Positions 26,497 through 58,995 of a DNA stretch of 64,000 bases are shown here, piece by piece. A program made the position numbers and the translations under genes. The stretch covers positions 224,001 to 288,000 of the IMG/VR virus record IMGVR_UViG_3300037067_018912, one strand, 5' to 3'. The notes beneath the pieces are model-generated. The model worked only from the letters and a program-made list of their open reading frames with translations. It made no database searches and had not been told where the DNA came from. This stretch comes from a virus (taxonomy: Duplodnaviria > Caudoviricetes). The first letter of the stretch is position 1. Each line of letters opens with the position of its first letter.

Positions 26497-26582
26497 TGTC
26501 CTCTGGTGGAATTGGATAAACACGTCAGTCTTTGGAACTGATGCCCACATTGGGTTTGCAGGTTCAAATCCTGCGGGGACAG
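26497..26582 (+). tRNA. tRNA-Gln(TTG) with long variable arm
   Basis: TCAGT-CT-TTG-GA-ACTGA then GCCCA-CAT-TGGGT arm. Confidence 0.8.
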
Positions 26583-26647
26583 CAAAATGCATAAAATTAA
26601 ATATACTTGCATAAAATCATGTATATTTTAATACGCTTGCATAAAAT

Positions 26648-29713: not shown

Positions 29714-29787
29714 AGTCCTGTAGTTTATACGGGTGTGAATGCCCCTGCGCACGGGGGTGGTTGCTGGTTCAAATCCAGTCAGGACTG
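29714..29787 (+). ncRNA. tRNA-like element with aberrant anticodon loop
   Basis: Acceptor AGTCCTG/CAGGACT, T arm GGTTCAAATCC, anticodon region CCCCT-GCGCAC-GGGGG. Confidence 0.65.
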
Positions 29788-29793
29788 CAAATC

Positions 29794-31087: not shown

Positions 31088-31161
31088 GCGGACGTAGCCG
31101 AATTGGCATAGGCGTCAGTCTTAGGAACTGATTTTTGTGGGTTCAAGTCCCACCGTCCGTA
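31088..31161 (+). tRNA. tRNA-Leu(TAG), short variable loop
   Basis: TCAGT-CT-TAG-GA-ACTGA followed by only a short T-rich loop. Confidence 0.85.
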
Positions 31162-31303
31162 CAAAAGGTGCATGACAGCAATAAGCAGTTTGGACTGCAT
31201 CACCTGTGCCGAGTTATCCTTAAATGTGAAGGAGTAATACCTTCTGAGTCTTTACATGACACTGCTTTATGTGTATTGGTTGGATAACTAAAAAGGCACA
31301 CAT

Positions 31304-31377
31304 GCAGATGTAGCCGAACTGGTATAGGCAATCGTTTCAGGGGCGATAATCTGCGGGTTCGACTCCCGCCATCTGTA
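31304..31377 (+). tRNA. tRNA-Leu(CAG), short variable loop
   Basis: ATCGT-TT-CAG-GG-GCGAT. Confidence 0.85.
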
Positions 31378-31458
31378 CGACCTTATTTTGGGTAACGAAG
31401 CCAATAGTCCCAAACACTCAGGTAGAAAATAATGGTTTCTGCATAAGGACAACTATAT

Positions 31459-33754: not shown

Positions 33755-34117
33755 GGGGGTGCTTTGGCTTTGACAGCGTGAACGGGATATGACGCAAGCA
33801 AGTGGTAGTTGAATCGGACTACCTTAAAAAGGTTCAAAACAATAGAAGCAGAGGATATAATGTCCATTCCAACTTCCCTCACAAGGGGAAGAAGCGTTTT
33901 CGTTGAGAGTGCTGAACTCATCGCAGCGTAAGGAAGCAACAAACGGCAAAAAACTTCCCAAATCATTCAGGTCTTTTGAAATCTGGTTTTTGGAAGATAC
34001 AGGAAGTAAAATAAAAGAATTGAATCAGATATGTTGACTGTTCTGAAAAACAGTATAAACTTGTAGAAAACGCATTGATCGCATGTTTGGACCGGGGTTC
34101 GACTCCCCGCACCTCCA
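33755..34117 (+). ncRNA. ssrA: tmRNA
   Basis: 5' GGGGGTG...TTTGAC, 3' GGGGTTCGACTCCCCGCACCTCCA with G3.U70; internal tag ORF 33848-33931 ending ELIAA-stop. Confidence 0.93.
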
Positions 34118-34143
34118 CTTAAACAATTGTAAATTAATTATTT

Positions 34144-35059: not shown

Positions 35060-35133
35060 GCCCATGTGATGGAACTGGTATACGTGTTCGTCTCAAAAGC
35101 GAAATTTTGTGGGTTCGAATCCCACCTTGGGCA
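35060..35133 (+). tRNA. tRNA-Leu(CAA), short variable loop
   Basis: TTCGT-CT-CAA-AA-GCGAA. Confidence 0.85.
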
Positions 35134-35398
35134 CAATTTGAAAACTTTCTCGTTATTGTAACGAATTACAATTTCCATCGTATTATCTTTGTATATGGCC
35201 ATTATGATGGAAAAGGACAAGAAGGACTACAAATTCGAATATTACAAGCCTCCAAAGAACGAATTGACTTGGAGGGAAGCCTTGTTGATATACGGAATTA
35301 TCATTGGCGGGAATGTTCTTATTATTATCATAATCATATTATCAGTAAAAAAATGGTGATTTCATTCTGTTCAGCGTATTTATGACAAACGGTTCACC

Positions 35399-41073: not shown

Positions 41074-41157
41074 GTATCCGTAGCAAAGAGGCTATGCACC
41101 AGACTTTTAATCTGGGGACAGTATTGTCCTACGTGGGTTCGAATCCCACCGGGTACA
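41074..41157 (+). tRNA. tRNA-Lys(TTT) with long variable arm
   Basis: CCAGA-CT-TTT-AA-TCTGG then GGACA-GTAT-TGTCC. Confidence 0.82.
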
Positions 41158-41222
41158 CTGATAAAACTTAACGTGGTCGGAAGTTTATTATTCCGAAAGG
41201 CAACTGTTTCAAGATCACAAAT

Positions 41223-41304
41223 GCAGTCGTGGCAGAATGGCCATGCTCCTGACTCTTAATCAGGGTACGAAAGTACGATGGGGGTTCGAATCCCTTCGGC
41301 TGCA
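41223..41304 (+). tRNA. tRNA-Lys(CTT) with long variable arm
   Basis: CCTGA-CT-CTT-AA-TCAGG then GTAC-GAAA-GTAC. Confidence 0.82.
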
Positions 41305-41310
41305 CAAAAT

Positions 41311-48351: not shown

Positions 48352-48382
48352 TTTGCAAATTAGTGTAACTGTTTTATCTTTG
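48352..48382 (+). promoter_or_regulatory. Bacteroidota-type promoter of tRNA operon 4
   Basis: TTTG(48352-55)-N19-TATCTTTG(48375-82). Confidence 0.8.
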
Positions 48383-48562: not shown

Positions 48563-48589
48563 GAAAAAAAGGACAGTTAAAACTTAACG

Positions 48590-48624
48590 AAACCCGGTGT
48601 CAAAAGCACCGGGTTTTTTGTTTT
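48590..48624 (+). terminator. Attenuator terminator 4
   Basis: AAACCCGGTGT-CAAAA-GCACCGGGTTT plus T run; 5' arm pairs with GGCATCGGGTT (48539-49). Confidence 0.9.
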
Positions 48625-48662: not shown

Positions 48663-48733
48663 GTCGGGATAGTATAGTGGTAGTACGCTTGTGTGGTATT
48701 CAAGTGACACCAGTTCGAGTCTGGTTCTCGGCT
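48663..48733 (+). tRNA. tRNA-Thr(GGT)
   Basis: CTTGT-GT-GGT-AT-TCAAG. Confidence 0.75.
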
Positions 48734-48793
48734 CAACGAATATCAGTTGTGAAACTCATATTCATCGATTATAAGGTCACAACCTTATGATTG

Positions 48794-48806
48794 AGTTCTT
48801 TGACAT
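48794..48806 (+). promoter_or_regulatory. boxA-like antitermination element
   Basis: AGTTCTTTGACAT. Confidence 0.65.
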
Positions 48807-48817
48807 GCTGGAATTTT

Positions 48818-48898
48818 GAAGGGTTGCCTGAGTGGTTGAAAGGGACAGTCTGCAAAACTGTTAGGAAACTCACGTGGGTTCAAATCCCACACCCTTCT
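48818..48898 (+). tRNA. tRNA-Cys(GCA) with extended variable region
   Basis: ACAGT-CT-GCA-AA-ACTGT, U73. Confidence 0.85.
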
Positions 48899-48960
48899 CA
48901 AAAGCGATATTTTGCGAAAAGCATTGTTTTTCGGTACTTATTGCAAAATATCGCTCTTAT

Positions 48961-49032
48961 GGACTGGTGGCTCAGTGGTAGAGCGTCTGGCTGTTAACCA
49001 GAGGGTCGGGGGTTCAAATCCCTCTCAGTCCG
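48961..49032 (+). tRNA. tRNA-Asn(GTT)
   Basis: TCTGG-CT-GTT-AA-CCAGA. Confidence 0.92.
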
Positions 49033-49037
49033 CAAAT

Positions 49038-49111
49038 TGTCTCGTAGTTCAGTTGGTTAGAGCACATCCCTGATAAGGATGAAGTCGTGAGTTCAACTCT
49101 CACCGAGACAA
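49038..49111 (+). tRNA. tRNA-Ile(GAT)
   Basis: CATCC-CT-GAT-AA-GGATG. Confidence 0.92.
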
Positions 49112-49187
49112 CAAACCGCCCCCAGCGGTATATAAAATTATGAATAAGCAATGCGCATTTAGTGCTGTTCATATACTGGGGACGCAT

Positions 49188-49262
49188 TGGGTGGTAGTTC
49201 AGTCCGGTTAGAACGCATCTCTGATAAGGATGAAGTCGAGGGTTCAAATCCCCCCCTCCCAA
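49188..49262 (+). tRNA. tRNA-Ile(GAT)
   Basis: CATCT-CT-GAT-AA-GGATG. Confidence 0.85.
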
Positions 49263-49383
49263 CAAAAGGTTCGTAGTCCGAAAGCCTAACCAGCCGACGG
49301 GTGAAGTTTCCTTGGCGAAATTGATGTAAACAAGCACCTGTGGTGGGATTGCGATGTGCTGATAAAGTGACCGAAAACTTAAT

Positions 49384-49470
49384 GGAAGGTTGGCAGAGCG
49401 GTCGATTGCGCCTGTCTTGAAAACAGGTGTACATGCCAATGTACCGGGGGTTCGAATCCCTCACCTTCCG
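49384..49470 (+). tRNA. tRNA-Ser(TGA)
   Basis: CCTGT-CT-TGA-AA-ACAGG, long V arm. Confidence 0.92.
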
Positions 49471-49553
49471 CACTTGGCGTAACCACGGCACGAACCGTGA
49501 CTTCGGATTTGATCACCGATGAAGCATTTAATGTTGATGCAGTCATGATATTT

Positions 49554-49638
49554 GGAGAGTTGGCAGAATGGTCATTGCAACAGTCCCGAAAACTGTCGTC
49601 GTGAAAGCGGCGTGTAGGTTCGAATCCTATGCTCTCCG
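49554..49638 (+). tRNA. tRNA-Ser(CGA), C33
   Basis: ACAGT-CC-CGA-AA-ACTGT, long V arm. Confidence 0.88.
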
Positions 49639-49645
49639 CAAAATC

Positions 49646-49717
49646 GAGGAAGTAGCATTACATGGGTAGCGCAGGGGCGAAAACCCTGAGAGGTGGGTTC
49701 GATTCCTGCATTCCTCA
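49646..49717 (+). tRNA. tRNA-Phe(GAA), atypical
   Basis: CAGGG-GC-GAA-AA-CCCTG. Confidence 0.65.
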
Positions 49718-49726
49718 CTCAAACAT

Positions 49727-49815
49727 GGAAGGTTGACAGAGCGGTCTATTGTAACAGCCTGGAAAGTTGTCGTCGTGAAAGCGACGCAGGGGTTCGAATC
49801 CCTTACCTTCCGCCA
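49727..49815 (+). tRNA. tRNA-Ser(GGA)
   Basis: ACAGC-CT-GGA-AA-GTTGT, long V arm, CCA encoded. Confidence 0.9.
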
Positions 49816-50148
49816 AAATTGACTTTAATATTGGAACAAAAAGGATGTAGTGTCATGACACATTCTTCGGGGAGGTTCAAATCCTTCAGAGTCAGCAAAC
49901 GGGTTGGACTGCAATCCGACCTGTTCTCACAGGATGCTGTTACAATCGTATCATTGCAGTGATGTGGTTGATGCAAAATGTGCGAGTCCCTGTATGCATA
50001 AGATGCTGTCCTAATGTTCAGTAGCAATTCCTCTTTCGCACACATGGTTGGCAACATGAAATGTGTGAGTACGGTGTTGTTCAGAGACGTTTATGTTGGT
50101 TGCAATGCCTCCGGGTTCGTGGTATAAGGCCACAACAGGGACAAATAT

Positions 50149-50220
50149 GGAGTGGTAACTCAGCGGTAGAGTGCCTCCCTGAAGAGGAGGTGGTCGGGGG
50201 TTCAAATCCCTCTCACTCCA
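50149..50220 (+). tRNA. tRNA-Phe(GAA)
   Basis: CCTCC-CT-GAA-GA-GGAGG. Confidence 0.9.
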
Positions 50221-50556
50221 CAAAAAAGGCAGGTGGACGGATCAAATCCTGTTCCCGCAGGACAAGATTGCCGCCTTGGTGCGGACGTTCACAACGGGAC
50301 TGCCTTATACAGGTCGGGCAACCAGCGGGGTTGTTCGGGTAACTTCCTCACAAGGAATCCTGTAAAAACATTGATAAACGGGGATACCCCGCTGCGAAAG
50401 CAGTGCCCCGCCCATAAAACAGGCTTCACGAAGACCTCCAACTTTAGGTTGGTGGGCGGTCAAACGCCCGGTGAAAGGTTCGTATATCAACAGGCTCACG
50501 GAGTCCTCCAACTTAAAATTGGTGAATCTCAATAATTCAGTAAAAAGTCCGTAAAT

Positions 50557-50628
50557 GCGAGTATAGCACAACGGCCAGTGCGTCAGATTTCCAATCTGAG
50601 GATGTCAGTTCGATCCTGATTACTCGCT
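50557..50628 (+). tRNA. tRNA-Gly(TCC)
   Basis: TCAGA-TT-TCC-AA-TCTGA. Confidence 0.9.
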
Positions 50629-50635
50629 CAAACAT

Positions 50636-50715
50636 TCACGAATAACTCAGCGGTTAGAGTGCCTCGGCGGGCTTCGGCTACGAGGGAGTCGGGGGTTCAA
50701 ATCCCTCTTCGTGTA
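50636..50715 (+). ncRNA. tRNA-like RNA whose anticodon loop is replaced by a UUCG hairpin
   Basis: Canonical D and T arms; CCTCG-gcgggcttcggcta-CGAGG. Confidence 0.75.
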
Positions 50716-50767
50716 CAAAAGGTCTGAGGGAGTCCTTTGAAGGTATAAACAACCTGTCCCTCTCCAC

Positions 50768-50840
50768 GGTGGTGTGGCGCAATGGTCAGCGCAGGACTCT
50801 TATAAGGTCAAGGTTGGGGGTTCAAGTCCCTTCACCACTA
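50768..50840 (+). tRNA. tRNA-Ile(TAT)
   Basis: GACT-CT-TAT-AA-GGTC. Confidence 0.85.
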
Positions 50841-50847
50841 CAAAAAT

Positions 50848-50932
50848 GTTTGGTTAGTCAAGTGGCCGACGACAGCAGGCTGTTAACCTGCCGAGAGAAA
50901 TCCCATCGTAGGTTCGAATCCTACATCAAACG
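50848..50932 (+). tRNA. tRNA-Asn(GTT) with long variable region
   Basis: GCAGG-CT-GTT-AA-CCTGC then 16-nt V region. Confidence 0.8.
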
Positions 50933-50978
50933 CAAATCATTTCCAAACCCTTATAGTATTTATGTGAAAATTAATGAT

Positions 50979-51230
50979 ATGAAGAAGGTTTGGGAAAGTC
51001 TCAAGTGGTTTTTCAGCAGATGGATGCTCGTGTTGGTTGTGCTTATTGTATTGGGGATAATCGCAACGTTCATAATAAAATTCACAACACATACAGAAGA
51101 ACCATACAAAATTCCATTGTTCATCATCGGTGGTTGGGGGGTATTTGTCGTTCTCTTCACTTGGGTGAGAGAGATTTATTGGAAAATTGCAGGTAAAGGT
51201 GATTATGCTAAAAAGGACGAAAAGAAATGA
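50979..51230 (+). CDS. Small membrane protein (2 TM)
   Basis: MKKVWESLKW..., two hydrophobic segments. Confidence 0.7.
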   Translation: MKKVWESLKWFFSRWMLVLVVLIVLGIIATFIIKFTTHTEEPYKIPLFIIGGWGVFVVLFTWVREIYWKIAGKGDYAKKDEKK

Positions 51231-51604
51231 ATATAATTTCGATTCTATTATTCTTTTTCGCCGGGGTTTGCAATGCCTGCATGGATGTATTAAGAACGAG
51301 ATATAACACTTCTACATTTCGTTTTTGGCGGAATCAGAATTGGGTGAACCCGGCATTATCATGGCCGAATAAATGGAAGCCAAAGTCGAAATTCGGTGAT
51401 CTTATTATGTCGACAGTCCTTGTATGGGTAACTGATTTTTGGCATATGTGTAAAATGTTGATGATTCTTTGTTTTACAATGGGAGCGATTTTTTATCAAC
51501 CAATTTTTGACTTTTCAAAATTTTGGTTGGATTTGTTGATTTTATATTTTATATTCACAGGAACATTTGAACTGTTTTTCAGCAAAGTGCTAATAAAGAA
51601 ATGA
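51227..51604 (+). CDS. Membrane protein
   Basis: 125 aa, SWPNKWK...VWVTDFWHMCK. Confidence 0.75.
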   Translation: MNIISILLFFFAGVCNACMDVLRTRYNTSTFRFWRNQNWVNPALSWPNKWKPKSKFGDLIMSTVLVWVTDFWHMCKMLMILCFTMGAIFYQPIFDFSKFWLDLLILYFIFTGTFELFFSKVLIKK

Positions 51605-51635
51605 CAATCATGTAAAATAATAAAGGGACATATTG

Positions 51636-52544
51636 ATGATCAAGATTTTCAAAACTTTCGGCGGGTGCGAAAGCGCAACCAAATTGGAAAAGGGATGTTG
51701 GATAGATGTGATTCAACCTACACAAGACGAGATTGAAGAAATAATAAACGGTTTTAACCTGCCCCCCGATAGTATACAAGACATTCTTGACGCCGATGAA
51801 ATGCCCCGTCTTGAAATCGACGACACTTACACCTTGATCATCATGCGTATTCCGGTGGAGAATTCACAAAACGGAATACCTTATTACACAATACCTCTTG
51901 GAATTTTTGTGACGGAAGATTTCACAATCACGATTTGTAATCAGGACAATGAAATCATTCAACCGAAACAATTGAGTAGCACGGCGGACACATACAATTT
52001 TATTTTGAAATTTTTTGTCAGATCAGCGAGTGTTTTTTTGAAATACCTTAAACAAATCAATCAACAGACAAGTCAAATCGAAAAGGATTTGGAAGAATCA
52101 ATTAAGAACAGTGAATTGAAAAAACTGTTGAAGATGGAAAAATGCCTTGTGTACTTCATTACTGCAATAAAATCGAATGAAATCGTCCTTCACCGTTTAA
52201 AAAACTCGAAAAGGATCACGGGTGAAATCAATGAAGACCTTTATGAGGACGCATTGATTGAAAACAGGCAGGCACTTGAAATGGCGCAGATATATTCAGA
52301 CATCTTGAGCGGGATGATGGACGCATTTGCCTCGATCATTTCGAACAACCTAAATGTGATAATGAAGAAATTGACGCTCATTTCAATAATACTCATGATC
52401 CCGACCCTTATCGCAAGTATATTCGGAATGAACATTCCGAATTTCATGGAAGGTTCAAATTGGGCGTTGCCTTCAATAATAATATTATCCCTATCACTGT
52501 CTTTGATCAGTGTGAAACTGATGAGAAACAAGCAGTGGTTTTAA
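51636..52544 (+). CDS. corA: CorA-family Mg2+ transporter
   Basis: ISNNLNVIMKKLT...PTLIASIFGMN signature. Confidence 0.92.
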   Translation: MIKIFKTFGGCESATKLEKGCWIDVIQPTQDEIEEIINGFNLPPDSIQDILDADEMPRLEIDDTYTLIIMRIPVENSQNGIPYYTIPLGIFVTEDFTITICNQDNEIIQPKQLSSTADTYNFILKFFVRSASVFLKYLKQINQQTSQIEKDLEESIKNSELKKLLKMEKCLVYFITAIKSNEIVLHRLKNSKRITGEINEDLYEDALIENRQALEMAQIYSDILSGMMDAFASIISNNLNVIMKKLTLISIILMIPTLIASIFGMNIPNFMEGSNWALPSIIILSLSLSLISVKLMRNKQWF

Positions 52545-52548
52545 AAAT

Positions 52549-52632
52549 GCCGATATCGCATAGTTGGTCAATTGCGCCGCACTTGTAATGCGGAGAAGAA
52601 ATTCTTCGTGGGTTCGAATCCCGCTATCGGCT
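52549..52632 (+). tRNA. tRNA-Thr(TGT) with long variable arm
   Basis: CCGCA-CT-TGT-AA-TGCGG then AGAA-GAAA-TTCT. Confidence 0.85.
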
Positions 52633-52734
52633 CAAAAGTAGGTGAAAAAGCGAAAGGATAACCTTCGGTATCAGGAAAACCTTTCACGGGTGCGGGAATA
52701 GACCGACTTGAACCGCACCCCGCTTATTTAAGTT

Positions 52735-52806
52735 GCCGATATAGCACAGCGGTAGTGCACCTGTTTCGTAAACAGGGGGTCGCAGGTTCAAATCCCGCTA
52801 TCGGCT
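52735..52806 (+). tRNA. tRNA-Thr(CGT)
   Basis: CCTGT-TT-CGT-AA-ACAGG. Confidence 0.9.
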
Positions 52807-52846
52807 CAAATCCTTGCTATTCTCCCTAATTTTTCCTAATTTTAAT

Positions 52847-52918
52847 GCCTCTATAGTTCAAGGGACAGAACAGAAGTTTTCTAAACTTCCGATCATGGTT
52901 CGAGTCCATGTGGGGGTA
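52847..52918 (+). tRNA. tRNA-Arg(TCT)
   Basis: GAAGT-TT-TCT-AA-ACTTC. Confidence 0.9.
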
Positions 52919-52932
52919 CTAAATAAATTAAA

Positions 52933-53166
52933 ATGTATACAGTTATCTGCCCGAAATGCAAGAAGTCCTTCACTGTGTCGGGTGACACCGAATACGTTCT
53001 TTGTTGCGATGAGGTGATATTCATCCCATCTAATGGTCCTGAAATGAAAGGCATCACTTTCCAATGCATACAGGAGGGGTTAATGAGGGATGGACGCAAC
53101 GTCGACCGGATATTTCTTGGTGATCCAAATGAAAGTATTGCACCCGATCCATACGAAGGATTGTGA
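52933..53166 (+). CDS. Small Cys-containing protein
   Basis: CPKC...CC. Confidence 0.55.
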   Translation: MYTVICPKCKKSFTVSGDTEYVLCCDEVIFIPSNGPEMKGITFQCIQEGLMRDGRNVDRIFLGDPNESIAPDPYEGL

Positions 53167-53329
53167 TGCGTTTTACGGTAAAGAAAATGAACGGCAAGGT
53201 CGCCTTTATGAATGAAAACAAAAGGTGGGTCAAACTCAATGGTTACGCTTTCCTTGATGAATACGGCCATTGCATCATAATTGTTTATGGTGAAGCGAGA
53301 ATGAAAGATGTTGAAAAGTATTTAAGTAT

Positions 53330-53401
53330 GCCCCTGTAGTTCAATGGACAGAACGGAAGTTTCCTAAACTTTAAATTCGAGTTCGATTCTCGGTGGGGGT
53401 A
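53330..53401 (+). tRNA. tRNA-Arg(CCT)
   Basis: GAAGT-TT-CCT-AA-ACTTT. Confidence 0.88.
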
Positions 53402-53493
53402 CAAAAACAGACAAATATTATCCGTCAATATGCAAAAACGTATAATAACCGGATAATAAATATCCTTATATGTAAAAGCATATAATAACATTC

Positions 53494-53565
53494 GCTCCCG
53501 TAGTTCAACGGATAGAACGCAAGTTTCCGGAACTTGTGATGCAAGTTCGATTCTTGTCGGGAGTA
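53494..53565 (+). tRNA. tRNA-Arg(CCG)
   Basis: CAAGT-TT-CCG-GA-ACTTG. Confidence 0.9.
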
Positions 53566-53592
53566 CAAGGTATTTATGTGAAAAGTAAATCA

Positions 53593-54069
53593 ATGAACAA
53601 CACCAAATTGAATGAAGAGATTCTGACCGCATACCGGGGTGGTGGGGAAATGCCGAGTCAAAGAAGGCTTTGGTACTTTACAACAAACGTCAAATATGCA
53701 AATTGGTTCAAGAGATACGCTTCCCTTGGAAAAGGCAAATTGTTTAAAGCGGATATAAGCACGGACAACCTTCTCGATTTGAGGTTTGTGACAAAACAGT
53801 TGAATTATCTTGATCTTCATTACATTTTAAAAAACAATGGAATAAGACCACCAAAATTCGTAATTGAAAACATTGAAGCGGGTTATGGTGGATACAAAGG
53901 TAATCTTTGGGAGTTCTTGAAAGAAGACAATGAATTGTGGGACAACATCTCAGAGAAATACGACGGAGTTATTTTCACCGAGACGAATCCGGAAGCGAGA
54001 CATACGGGCAAGGCGGAGACTATAATAATTGATATGATCAAGCACCCGGTCGAATATGAAGAAGTATAA
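53593..54069 (+). CDS. ADP-ribosyltransferase-like protein (tentative)
   Basis: AYRG...WYFTT..KYA...YDGVIF pattern. Confidence 0.5.
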   Translation: MNNTKLNEEILTAYRGGGEMPSQRRLWYFTTNVKYANWFKRYASLGKGKLFKADISTDNLLDLRFVTKQLNYLDLHYILKNNGIRPPKFVIENIEAGYGGYKGNLWEFLKEDNELWDNISEKYDGVIFTETNPEARHTGKAETIIIDMIKHPVEYEEV

Positions 54070-54072
54070 TAT

Positions 54073-54146
54073 GCACCTGTAGTGTAACTGGACAACACGT
54101 CTGACTACGGATCAGGAGATTGAGGGTTCGAATCCTTTCAGGTGTA
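54073..54146 (+). tRNA. tRNA-Arg(ACG)
   Basis: TCTGA-CT-ACG-GA-TCAGG. Confidence 0.92.
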
Positions 54147-54256
54147 CTAAAACCATAAGCCTATAGTCCAATATTCGAGAGTAACTTCTCAGAAGGGCAC
54201 GGTGTACAACGGAATTCAGGTATGAAATCCTGATGGGAACAACTTATGGTTTAATT

Positions 54257-54329
54257 GCAGAAATGGCGCAATCGGTAGCGCATGGCCTTCCCAAGGCCAG
54301 GGTTGCGGGTTCGAGACCCGTTTTCTGCT
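54257..54329 (+). tRNA. tRNA-Gly(CCC)
   Basis: TGGCC-TT-CCC-AA-GGCCA. Confidence 0.92.
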
Positions 54330-54337
54330 CAAATTTT

Positions 54338-54412
54338 GCGGGAATAGCACAGTGGTAGTGCGTTTGCTTGCCAAGCAAAAGGTCGTGAGTTCAAGCCTCA
54401 TTTCCCGCTCCA
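54338..54412 (+). tRNA. tRNA-Gly(GCC)
   Basis: TTTGC-TT-GCC-AA-GCAAA, CCA encoded. Confidence 0.92.
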
Positions 54413-54413
54413 T

Positions 54414-54486
54414 GCGAGATTAGCACAGTTGGTTAGTGTATCGGCTTGCCATGCCGGGAACGTGGGTTCGAATCCCATATCTTGCT
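54414..54486 (+). tRNA. tRNA-Gly(GCC)
   Basis: TCGGC-TT-GCC-AT-GCCGG. Confidence 0.88.
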
Positions 54487-54501
54487 CAAAATTATGTTGT
54501 T

Positions 54502-55554: not shown

Positions 55555-55813
55555 AAAACATAGCACAGAGGATTCATCGCTTGTTCAATAAAATCGTCTG
55601 TTCACTGTACGTGAACATTCAAAAATATTGAACAAGAGGAAGTTCGGGACACCACTGCTGAAGGCGGGAGATTCAACGCTAATCGGGATCGCCAATACCG
55701 CCGAGGGTGCAAGCCAAACAGTTTGAGACGGTGAGCAGGTCTTTGAGAACGGGTTGGTGCGTAGATAAATGATGATTAACAACAGAATCCCGGCTACGCT
55801 CATGCTATGTTTT
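55555..55813 (+). ncRNA. rnpB: RNase P RNA with strongly reduced specificity domain
   Basis: P1 AAAACATAGCA/TGCTATGTTTT; P2 TCATC/GATGA; P3 CTTGTTCAATA/TATTGAACAAG; P4 strands GAGGAAGTTCGGGAC and AGATAAATGA...ACAGAATCCCGGCTA. Confidence 0.85.
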
Positions 55814-55969
55814 AAAATTTTTGACGAATGAATCGAAATCAGTGACGAATGGATGAGAATCATTAATGAAATTAATGTGTTTTAGTCATAATTTAGTCTT
55901 GAAACTCTTATCATTGTAACAAGTCCGGTTTTTTTTCGTATCTTTGTCAGGTAATCAAAACAATCTTGC

Positions 55970-58906: not shown

Positions 58907-58979
58907 GGTTCTGTAACTTAATCGGCTAAAGTAGCAGTCTCTAAAACTGTGTTTGCGGGTTCGAACCCCGCCAGGATCA
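58907..58979 (+). tRNA. Amber suppressor tRNA (CTA anticodon)
   Basis: Acceptor GGTTCTG/CAGGATC, GCAGT-CT-CTA-AA-ACTGT, T arm GCGGGTTCGAACCCCGC. Confidence 0.88.
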
Positions 58980-58995
58980 CCTATATATTTTTACA

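Follow-up and report, generated by a model that had tools for sequence, protein, structure and literature searches.

A 259-nt gene on the + strand of the phage genome (window 55555-55813, equal to C1:279555-279813) encodes an RNA whose predicted fold is that of the catalytic domain of a bacterial type A RNase P RNA. The window is the whole stretch of 64,000 nucleotides analysed here, corresponding to C1:224001-288000 of the phage record, which is complete, 357,275 bp long, bounded by terminal repeats and of 40% GC; the gene occurs in it as a single copy. From the comparison of sequences we consider it practically beyond doubt that this is a real RNase P homologue under selection, and very probable that the RNA is catalytically active. 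With less assurance, we favour the maturation of phage pre-tRNAs, together with host RnpA, as its main job.

Predicted structure of the RNA

The elements of the RNA are the following (window coordinates).

55555-55570, + strand: P1 5' strand, pairing with 55799-55813 (11 bp, 55555-55565/55803-55813, plus 3 bp past a bulge)
55574-55578, + strand: P2, pairing with 55771-55775
55580-55636, + strand: P3, with an 11-bp stem, an internal loop and a 7-bp stem
from 55636, + strand: CR-I/P4 5' strand region; the P4 3' strand region starts at 55782
55641-55649, + strand: P4 5' strand, pairing with 55788-55795, with a bulged U at 55644
55650-55653, + strand: P5 5' strand, pairing with 55706-55709
55655-55659, + strand: 5' strand of the P6 pseudoknot, pairing with 55734-55738 in the P17 loop
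55663-55702, + strand: stub, with P7 (55663-67/55698-702), GA (55668-69), a hairpin (55670-90) and a 7-nt strand (55691-97)
55710-55758, + strand: J5/15, P15 (3 bp), L15, P16 and P17
55752-55754, + strand: GGU of L15, the site for the tRNA 3' NCCA end
55763-55796, + strand: CR-IV (J18/2, at 55763), P2 3' strand, CR-V and P4 3' strand

Every element that an initial annotation had named (P1, P2, P3, the P4 strands and CR-IV) was recovered where it had been placed, within a length of 259 nt, and its proposal that the phage encodes an RNase P RNA whose catalytic domain is intact is supported; a complete fold can be drawn and the helices covary. P5, the P6 pseudoknot, P15-P17, the GGU of L15 and a kink-turn motif are additions to that list. 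The folding z-score of the RNA is -2.6.

Across the family of relatives described below, the energy of the P1 duplex is -15.0 kcal/mol for cognate strands as compared to -8.7 kcal/mol for non-cognate ones, and P2 forms 6/6 pairs in 91 of 101 relatives (mean 5.8 cognate vs. 3.8 non-cognate). P3 is unusually long in this RNA, measuring 9-37 nt in most relatives. P4 has eight pairs, which are formed at 100% in 68 sequences, and four of the pairs covary; its bulged U at 55644 is the equivalent of E. coli U69, and a U-G pair replaces the usual G68-C358 (E. coli numbering). The same U-G was found in 82/104 relatives, with helix length and bulge retained. P5 is paired at 99.3%, with three of its four pairs covarying, and the P6 pseudoknot at 81%, with covariation in 5/5 pairs and a Watson-Crick run of 5.3 in cognate as compared to 3.4 in non-cognate pairings. 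In the short form P15 has three covarying pairs, with respect to four in the full-length RNAs seen. The P16/P17 region of this RNA contains a kink-turn motif (GA at 55725-26, UUU-GA at 55742-46), and the canonical kink-turn sequence is present there in 39 of 100 relatives. Both P18 and P19 are missing, and CR-IV directly follows P15; P18 is missing also in 59/104 relatives, while the others carry variable helices in its place. Among the relatives L008, L020, L052, L053 and L123, some have a P5 extension or extra P5-P7 helices, with a P6 of at most 8 bp, and P18- or P19-like inserts occur in other members.

A stereotyped stub in place of the specificity domain

CR-II/CR-III and P8-P12 are missing from the RNA, and with them the full specificity domain of type A. 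The near absence of this domain had been recognised in the initial annotation, which however estimated the remaining region at about 55 nt; the segment GGCGG...CCGCC corresponds to 55663-55702 and measures 40 nt, of which 30 separate the two strands. Similarly, the description of the RNA as catalytic-domain-only is appropriate, but not as a plain deletion of the specificity domain, given that a stereotyped and conserved stub remains. In the family, a P7 of roughly 5 bp encloses GA, a hairpin that varies freely in length and 7 nt of the form G-Y-Y-N-N-N-A, with a median of 21 nt between the P7 strands. A strict parse recovered this layout in 63 of the 104 relatives; in these 63 the 7-nt strand ends with A in 62 and starts with G in 55. 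Such a stereotyped arrangement is read here as the product of selection and not of decay. When the 7-nt strand was read as a U-N-N-R-A T-loop, position 4 was inconsistently a purine, and no clear T-loop consensus emerged. A split RNA, with the specificity domain encoded elsewhere, was rejected on the basis that RF00010 has no match (E<=1) in the phage genome.

Relatives, covariation and scores on Rfam models

Relatives were collected with a pattern of two conserved anchors 38-68 nt apart, a distance that is 112-188 nt in the full-length RNAs seen. Hits came from 62 viral contigs, from at least 119 metagenome records and from 8 genome contigs; those without a matching P4 3' strand were discarded, as were copies with >90% identity, which left 104 distinct relatives with an estimated full length of 193-323 nt (median 239). 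Since this RNA had served to derive the pattern, the relatives are a biased subset, and the invariance of the anchors is no evidence, because it was imposed by the search. Elements that were not imposed are conserved as well: the GGU of L15 is present in 104/104 relatives, and the CR-IV and CR-V cores are near-invariant. In a plain MAFFT alignment of 68 relatives, analysed over 32 pairs, standard pairs occupied 93.7% of the helix cells, as compared to 68.5% after shuffling and 30-44% after sliding. Both-sided changes were observed in 24 of the 32 pairs, both pseudoknots included, and the covarying helices are P4, P5, P6, P7, P15, P16 and P17.

A covariance search with Rfam models had been suggested as a check. 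The archaeal model RNaseP_arch (RF00373) matched the RNA from end to end at a relaxed threshold, with a score (26.2 bits, E 2e-5) below its gathering cut-off of 84 bits, and the bacterial model RF00010 (gathering score 100 bits) gave zero matches at E<=1 across the phage genome. Archaeal type T (RF02357, cut-off 60 bits) gave zero matches at E<=10. The relatives score 40-83 bits on RF00010. On a family model derived from our alignment, this RNA, which is part of the training set, scores 152 bits, the copy of phage DLP6, which is outside it, 135 bits, and full-length viral and cellular RNAs 19-70 bits. Membership of the RNase P RNA superfamily (Rfam clan CL00002) is assigned by predicted structure, because the P4 pseudoknot with its bulged U, P1-P3 and CR-IV are all found. 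As a side observation, 53 RNase P RNA matches came from the class to which a Roizmanbacteria bin belongs; 37 of these lie under the RF00010 cut-off, and the P15-P17 region of several is degenerate.

The fact that this RNA scores under every Rfam cut-off tried would agree with a degenerating remnant of an rnpB gene once captured from a host. However, the same reduction is seen in 104 distinct copies with compensated helices, and the layout is retained though the nearest relative of this copy is just 78% identical; covariation largely refutes the relic, to which we assign hardly any chance.

Distribution

A tRNA gene lies within 1 kb of the RNA in 59 of 103 related loci. The cultured phage DLP6 carries an unannotated copy at about 105,780-106,015 of KU682439.2, between a CDS and tRNA-Arg, and one copy is present also in the published 735-kb phage LR756501. 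Standard Rfam cut-offs miss the family even in these two genomes; DLP6 opens the way to in vivo work on a short RNase P RNA. In Lak-A1, despite more than 30 tRNA matches, no copy was detectable by the family model, and for this reason large tRNA sets do not appear to require the short RNA.

A scan of 185,579 species genomes gave 8 cellular hits, five of which are due to chance. The remaining three, which are real, are L069, located within a tRNA array (12 genes in 3 kb), L076, in an array of 30 genes in 8 kb, and L070, a 2.3-kb bin contig. The L076 copy (L076/L200) belongs to a contig of an Achromobacter anxifer isolate, whose genome contains its normal full rnpB in addition to the short RNA. 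Cellular membership was rejected on these grounds, namely the five chance hits, the dense tRNA arrays around L069 and L076 and the rnpB of Achromobacter itself, and the short form looks viral as judged from the loci collected. The Achromobacter copy probably belongs to a prophage or another integrated element; a search of another 100 genomes from the phylum of Achromobacter, in which few candidates per genome were scored, gave no match. This isolate is a second culturable source of the short form. In the class of the L069 bin, the top 20 RNase P RNA matches are 259-414 nt long. The U-G variant of P4 was also sought in Patescibacteria, and its occurrence there was rejected: 13 of 401 genomes matched, a rate equal to that of the controls, and of these matches the L069 copy alone is an RNase P RNA. 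The RNase P RNAs of 400 Patescibacteria genomes did not show the variant.

Comparison with known RNase P RNAs

With bacterial type A (RF00010; E. coli M1 RNA) the phage RNA shares the P1-P7 topology, the length of P4 with its bulged U, the P6 pseudoknot to L17, P15-P17, the GGU of L15 and bacterial-like CR-I, CR-IV and CR-V. It differs in having a 40-nt specificity stub, no CR-II/CR-III, no P18/P19, a 3-bp P15 and a U-G at the G68-C358 position, and in being encoded by a virus.

Archaeal type T has a reduced specificity domain, a P6, no P18 and a P16/P17 kink-turn (PMC13462272, PMC5839562), and Rpp29 and L7Ae have been modelled as replacing the lost elbow-reading domain (PMC13462272). The phage RNA has a similar layout: P6 is present, P18 is not, P16/P17 contains a kink-turn, and of the specificity domain there remains a stem from which a loop is extruded. 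In contrast to type T (Thermoproteaceae; Pop5, Rpp30, Rpp29 and L7Ae), it has bacterial-type conserved regions, does not match RF02357, has a probable bacterial host and resides in a genome lacking Pop5 and L7Ae. Assignment to type T failed, and the likeness is probably a convergence.

The engineered catalytic-domain RNAs (Eco CP RPR and Pfu CP RPR; PMC5839562) likewise contain P6 and P15-17 and do not need P18, whereas the phage RNA is natural, is under purifying selection and retains a conserved stub. Finally, five IMG/VR contigs of 83-360 kb (L002-L006) encode full-length type A RNase P RNAs with scores of 158-189 bits on RF00010. Like the short form, these are encoded by viruses, lie near tRNA genes and show the U-G variant of P4, but their specificity domain is complete, their P15 has 4 bp and their scores exceed the RF00010 cut-off. 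It is possible that such full-length RNAs were the ancestors of the short form.

In the literature we found no report of a virus-encoded RNase P RNA; subscription journals were poorly covered, so an earlier description is possible. RNase P is not mentioned in the phage papers PMC7162821, PMC5349666 and PMC7824862. The only natural RNase P with a reduced specificity domain that we found described is archaeal type T, which needs several proteins. The phage family thus offers a natural bacterial-type catalytic domain in more than 100 variants, with which the efficiency of RNase P without a specificity domain, and its compensation, are now testable. With it the translation toolkit of large phages gains a ribozyme, and such a compact natural RNA could serve as a scaffold for structure studies.

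The probable tRNA operon and the probable host

Upstream of the RNase P RNA gene, on the same strand, lies an array of 21 tRNA genes. The relevant features are listed here.

48352-48382, + strand: likely promoter of Bacteroidota type, heading the tRNA operon
from 48437, + strand: 41-codon leader ORF, with many codons for the amino acids carried by the tRNAs that follow
48589-48617, + strand: strong terminator hairpin with a T run
48663-54487, + strand: array of 21 tRNA genes (ARAGORN) for Thr, Cys, Asn, Ile, Ser, Phe, Gly and Arg; candidate substrates

No other promoter of the host type was found on the + strand from the 48352 site until 55914-55946, and between the leader terminator and the RNA gene there are only weak terminator-like hits. 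Considering the common strand, the lack of an intervening promoter and the weakness of these terminators, we infer a shared operon, in which the RNase P RNA gene probably occupies the last position behind a leader-peptide attenuator and is induced with the other genes. The same tRNA operon contains a gene for a CorA-like Mg2+ transporter (window 51633-52544), with a 38% homologue in Lak phages; RNase P needs Mg2+.

The phage encodes a T4-like portal and terminase and a ribonucleotide reductase. Only 11 of 234 phage genes are preceded by a Shine-Dalgarno-like motif, A is enriched at positions -11 to -14 ahead of the genes, and 23 of 72 TTG-gap-TAnnTTTG sites fall outside ORFs, although non-ORF sequence makes up 7.7% of the genome. 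Scarce Shine-Dalgarno motifs, A at -11 to -14 and the TTG-gap-TAnnTTTG promoter are Bacteroidota traits. For these reasons the host is probably a member of the Bacteroidota.

Likely protein partner and proposed mechanism

The RnpA binding surface is located in the catalytic domain. No family match to RnpA, HARP, Pop5 or L7Ae was found in the complete phage genome, and RnpA is absent also from five other carrier phage records, three of which are incomplete. Since the RnpA gene is missing from the phage genome, host RnpA, probably from a Bacteroidota, is the likely partner.

A different partner could be envisaged, in that a phage protein or another host protein bound to the stub or to the P16/P17 kink-turn would replace the elbow-reading domain. 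The fixed 2-nt/7-nt internal loop of the stub is in line with this idea, as is the presence of the kink-turn here and in 39/100 relatives, at the place where L7Ae binds type T RNA (PMC13462272). Yet the genome contains no L7Ae or Pop5 family member, and B. thetaiotaomicron, used as a control, gave no L7Ae match. Moreover, no protein family recurs beside the RNA in the 104 loci, with the exception of an HNH nuclease in 13 of them, and the two flanking genes (103-104 aa) have no family and no strong look-alike. A dedicated phage protein was rejected on these grounds, though a remote homologue might be encoded elsewhere in the genome, and the reading as a whole appears quite improbable.

In the mechanism that we favour, with host RnpA, the RNA would be transcribed together with the phage tRNAs at the end of their operon, P4 would fold with its metal-binding bulged U, the catalytic domain would bind host RnpA, and the 5' leaders of phage pre-tRNAs and pre-tmRNA would be removed. 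As the T-loop modules that read the elbow are lacking, the substrate might be positioned by leader N-1 against the A of J5/15, by the acceptor stem and by pairing of the 3' N73-C74(-C75) to the GGU of L15, a pairing that P6 and the P16/P17 kink may hold in place. The tRNA 3' end could be completed by the CCA-adding domain of the phage, and the benefit would consist in extra maturation capacity once about 60 tRNA genes switch on together. A CCA-adding nucleotidyltransferase domain is found, with ADP-ribosyltransferase, GNAT and HAD phosphatase domains, in a 1507-aa polyvalent protein (C1:101962-106485, - strand); CCA-adding enzymes are already known from jumbo phages (PMC7824862).

The engineered E. 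coli catalytic domain cleaves at the correct site with or without protein, requires P6 and P15-17, can dispense with P18 and, compared to the full RNA, loses about 100-500-fold in rate (PMC5839562). The elements retained and omitted by the phage RNA are the same. The gain from a short RNA is therefore not obvious, considering that the engineered domain is slow and that the host owns a full enzyme. Against a role in pre-tRNA maturation one may also set the P15 shorter by one pair and the U-G in place of G68-C358, both adjoining the active site. The same deviations of P4 and P15, together with the retention of the protein-binding half and the loss of the half that gives efficiency, would suit a decoy that titrates host RnpA or tRNA 3' ends with scant or zero cutting, so that the maturation of host tRNAs would be damped or the tRNAs of the phage protected. 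But the joint conservation of the GGU of L15, P6 and CR-IV/CR-V exceeds what a protein sponge needs, and the phage itself needs RNase P to obtain its tRNAs; we regard a decoy as very improbable. A bolder form of our preferred reading, which we put forward only tentatively and hold to be less probable than its opposite, is that of a virus-specific third RNase P architecture, in which efficiency would be regained through the fixed stub and the remodelled P4/P15, and a codon-sensing attenuator would induce the RNA when the host tRNA pool fails.

Candidate substrates

The phage genome contains 58 tRNA calls and one tmRNA. Tolerance of atypical tRNA shapes, proposed in the initial annotation as a reason for the short RNA, did not find support, because the elbow motifs are canonical and the oddities are confined to the variable arms: 60 of 60 parsed tRNA genes have the D-loop GG and a TTCRA T-loop, a count that is partly imposed by the tRNA detector. 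It is the D/T-loop elbow of tRNA that the specificity domain reads, and we know of no contact between the variable arm and RNase P. The variable arms are long in Gln, Lys, Cys, Asn and Thr tRNAs and short in some Leu tRNAs, which is the reverse of the bacterial norm, and they perhaps serve the escape from host tRNA nucleases or alter synthetase identity.

Window 26497-26583, 41074-41158, 41223-41305, 48818-48899, 50848-50933 and 52549-52633: Gln, Lys, Cys, Asn and Thr tRNAs with long variable arms
Window 31088-31162, 31304-31378 and 35060-35134: Leu tRNAs with short variable arms

With regard to the leaders, U is found at -1 in 44/60 and A at -2 in 38/60; the U at -1 of most leaders fits an RNA-based RNase P. 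C74 is encoded in 54 of 56 tRNA genes and CCA in 4 of 56 (window 25256-58981), and in related loci 691 of 695 tRNA genes have either C or U at position 74. The tRNAs of Lak-A1 show the U-1 and C74 patterns too, so these are not diagnostic of the short enzyme. C74 without CCA was considered as a co-adaptation to the short ribozyme and rejected, Lak-A1 having C74 in 25/25 and no detectable copy of the RNA; the C74 habit fits a custom of Bacteroidota phages.

Normal elbows imply that the host enzyme could process the phage tRNAs, and engineered catalytic domains correctly cut short model hairpins (PMC5839562). Both points would agree with a shifted specificity, in which the main targets would be NCCA-ending hairpins other than normal pre-tRNAs, such as phage tRNA-like or Y-like RNAs, damaged or repaired tRNAs, or host RNAs. 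We consider this rather unlikely, given that the family resides in ordinary tRNA arrays of many phages, DLP6 included, and that no common neighbouring substrate gene was seen, in an analysis in which proteins alone were clustered.

Some other genes of the phage deserve mention. A tmRNA (window 33755-34120), with an unusually long predicted tag peptide of 27 residues, is a candidate substrate. A tRNA with a CUA anticodon (window 58907-58981) resembles an amber suppressor and was called Pyl by ARAGORN; TAG stops terminate 13 of 233 long ORFs, and the coding density is normal under table 11. A tRNA-like gene at window 29714-29788, between two Asp tRNAs, was called with a four-base anticodon (gcgc), and two tRNA-like genes, one of them with a UCA anticodon call, lie outside the arrays at C1:159493-159745 (- strand).
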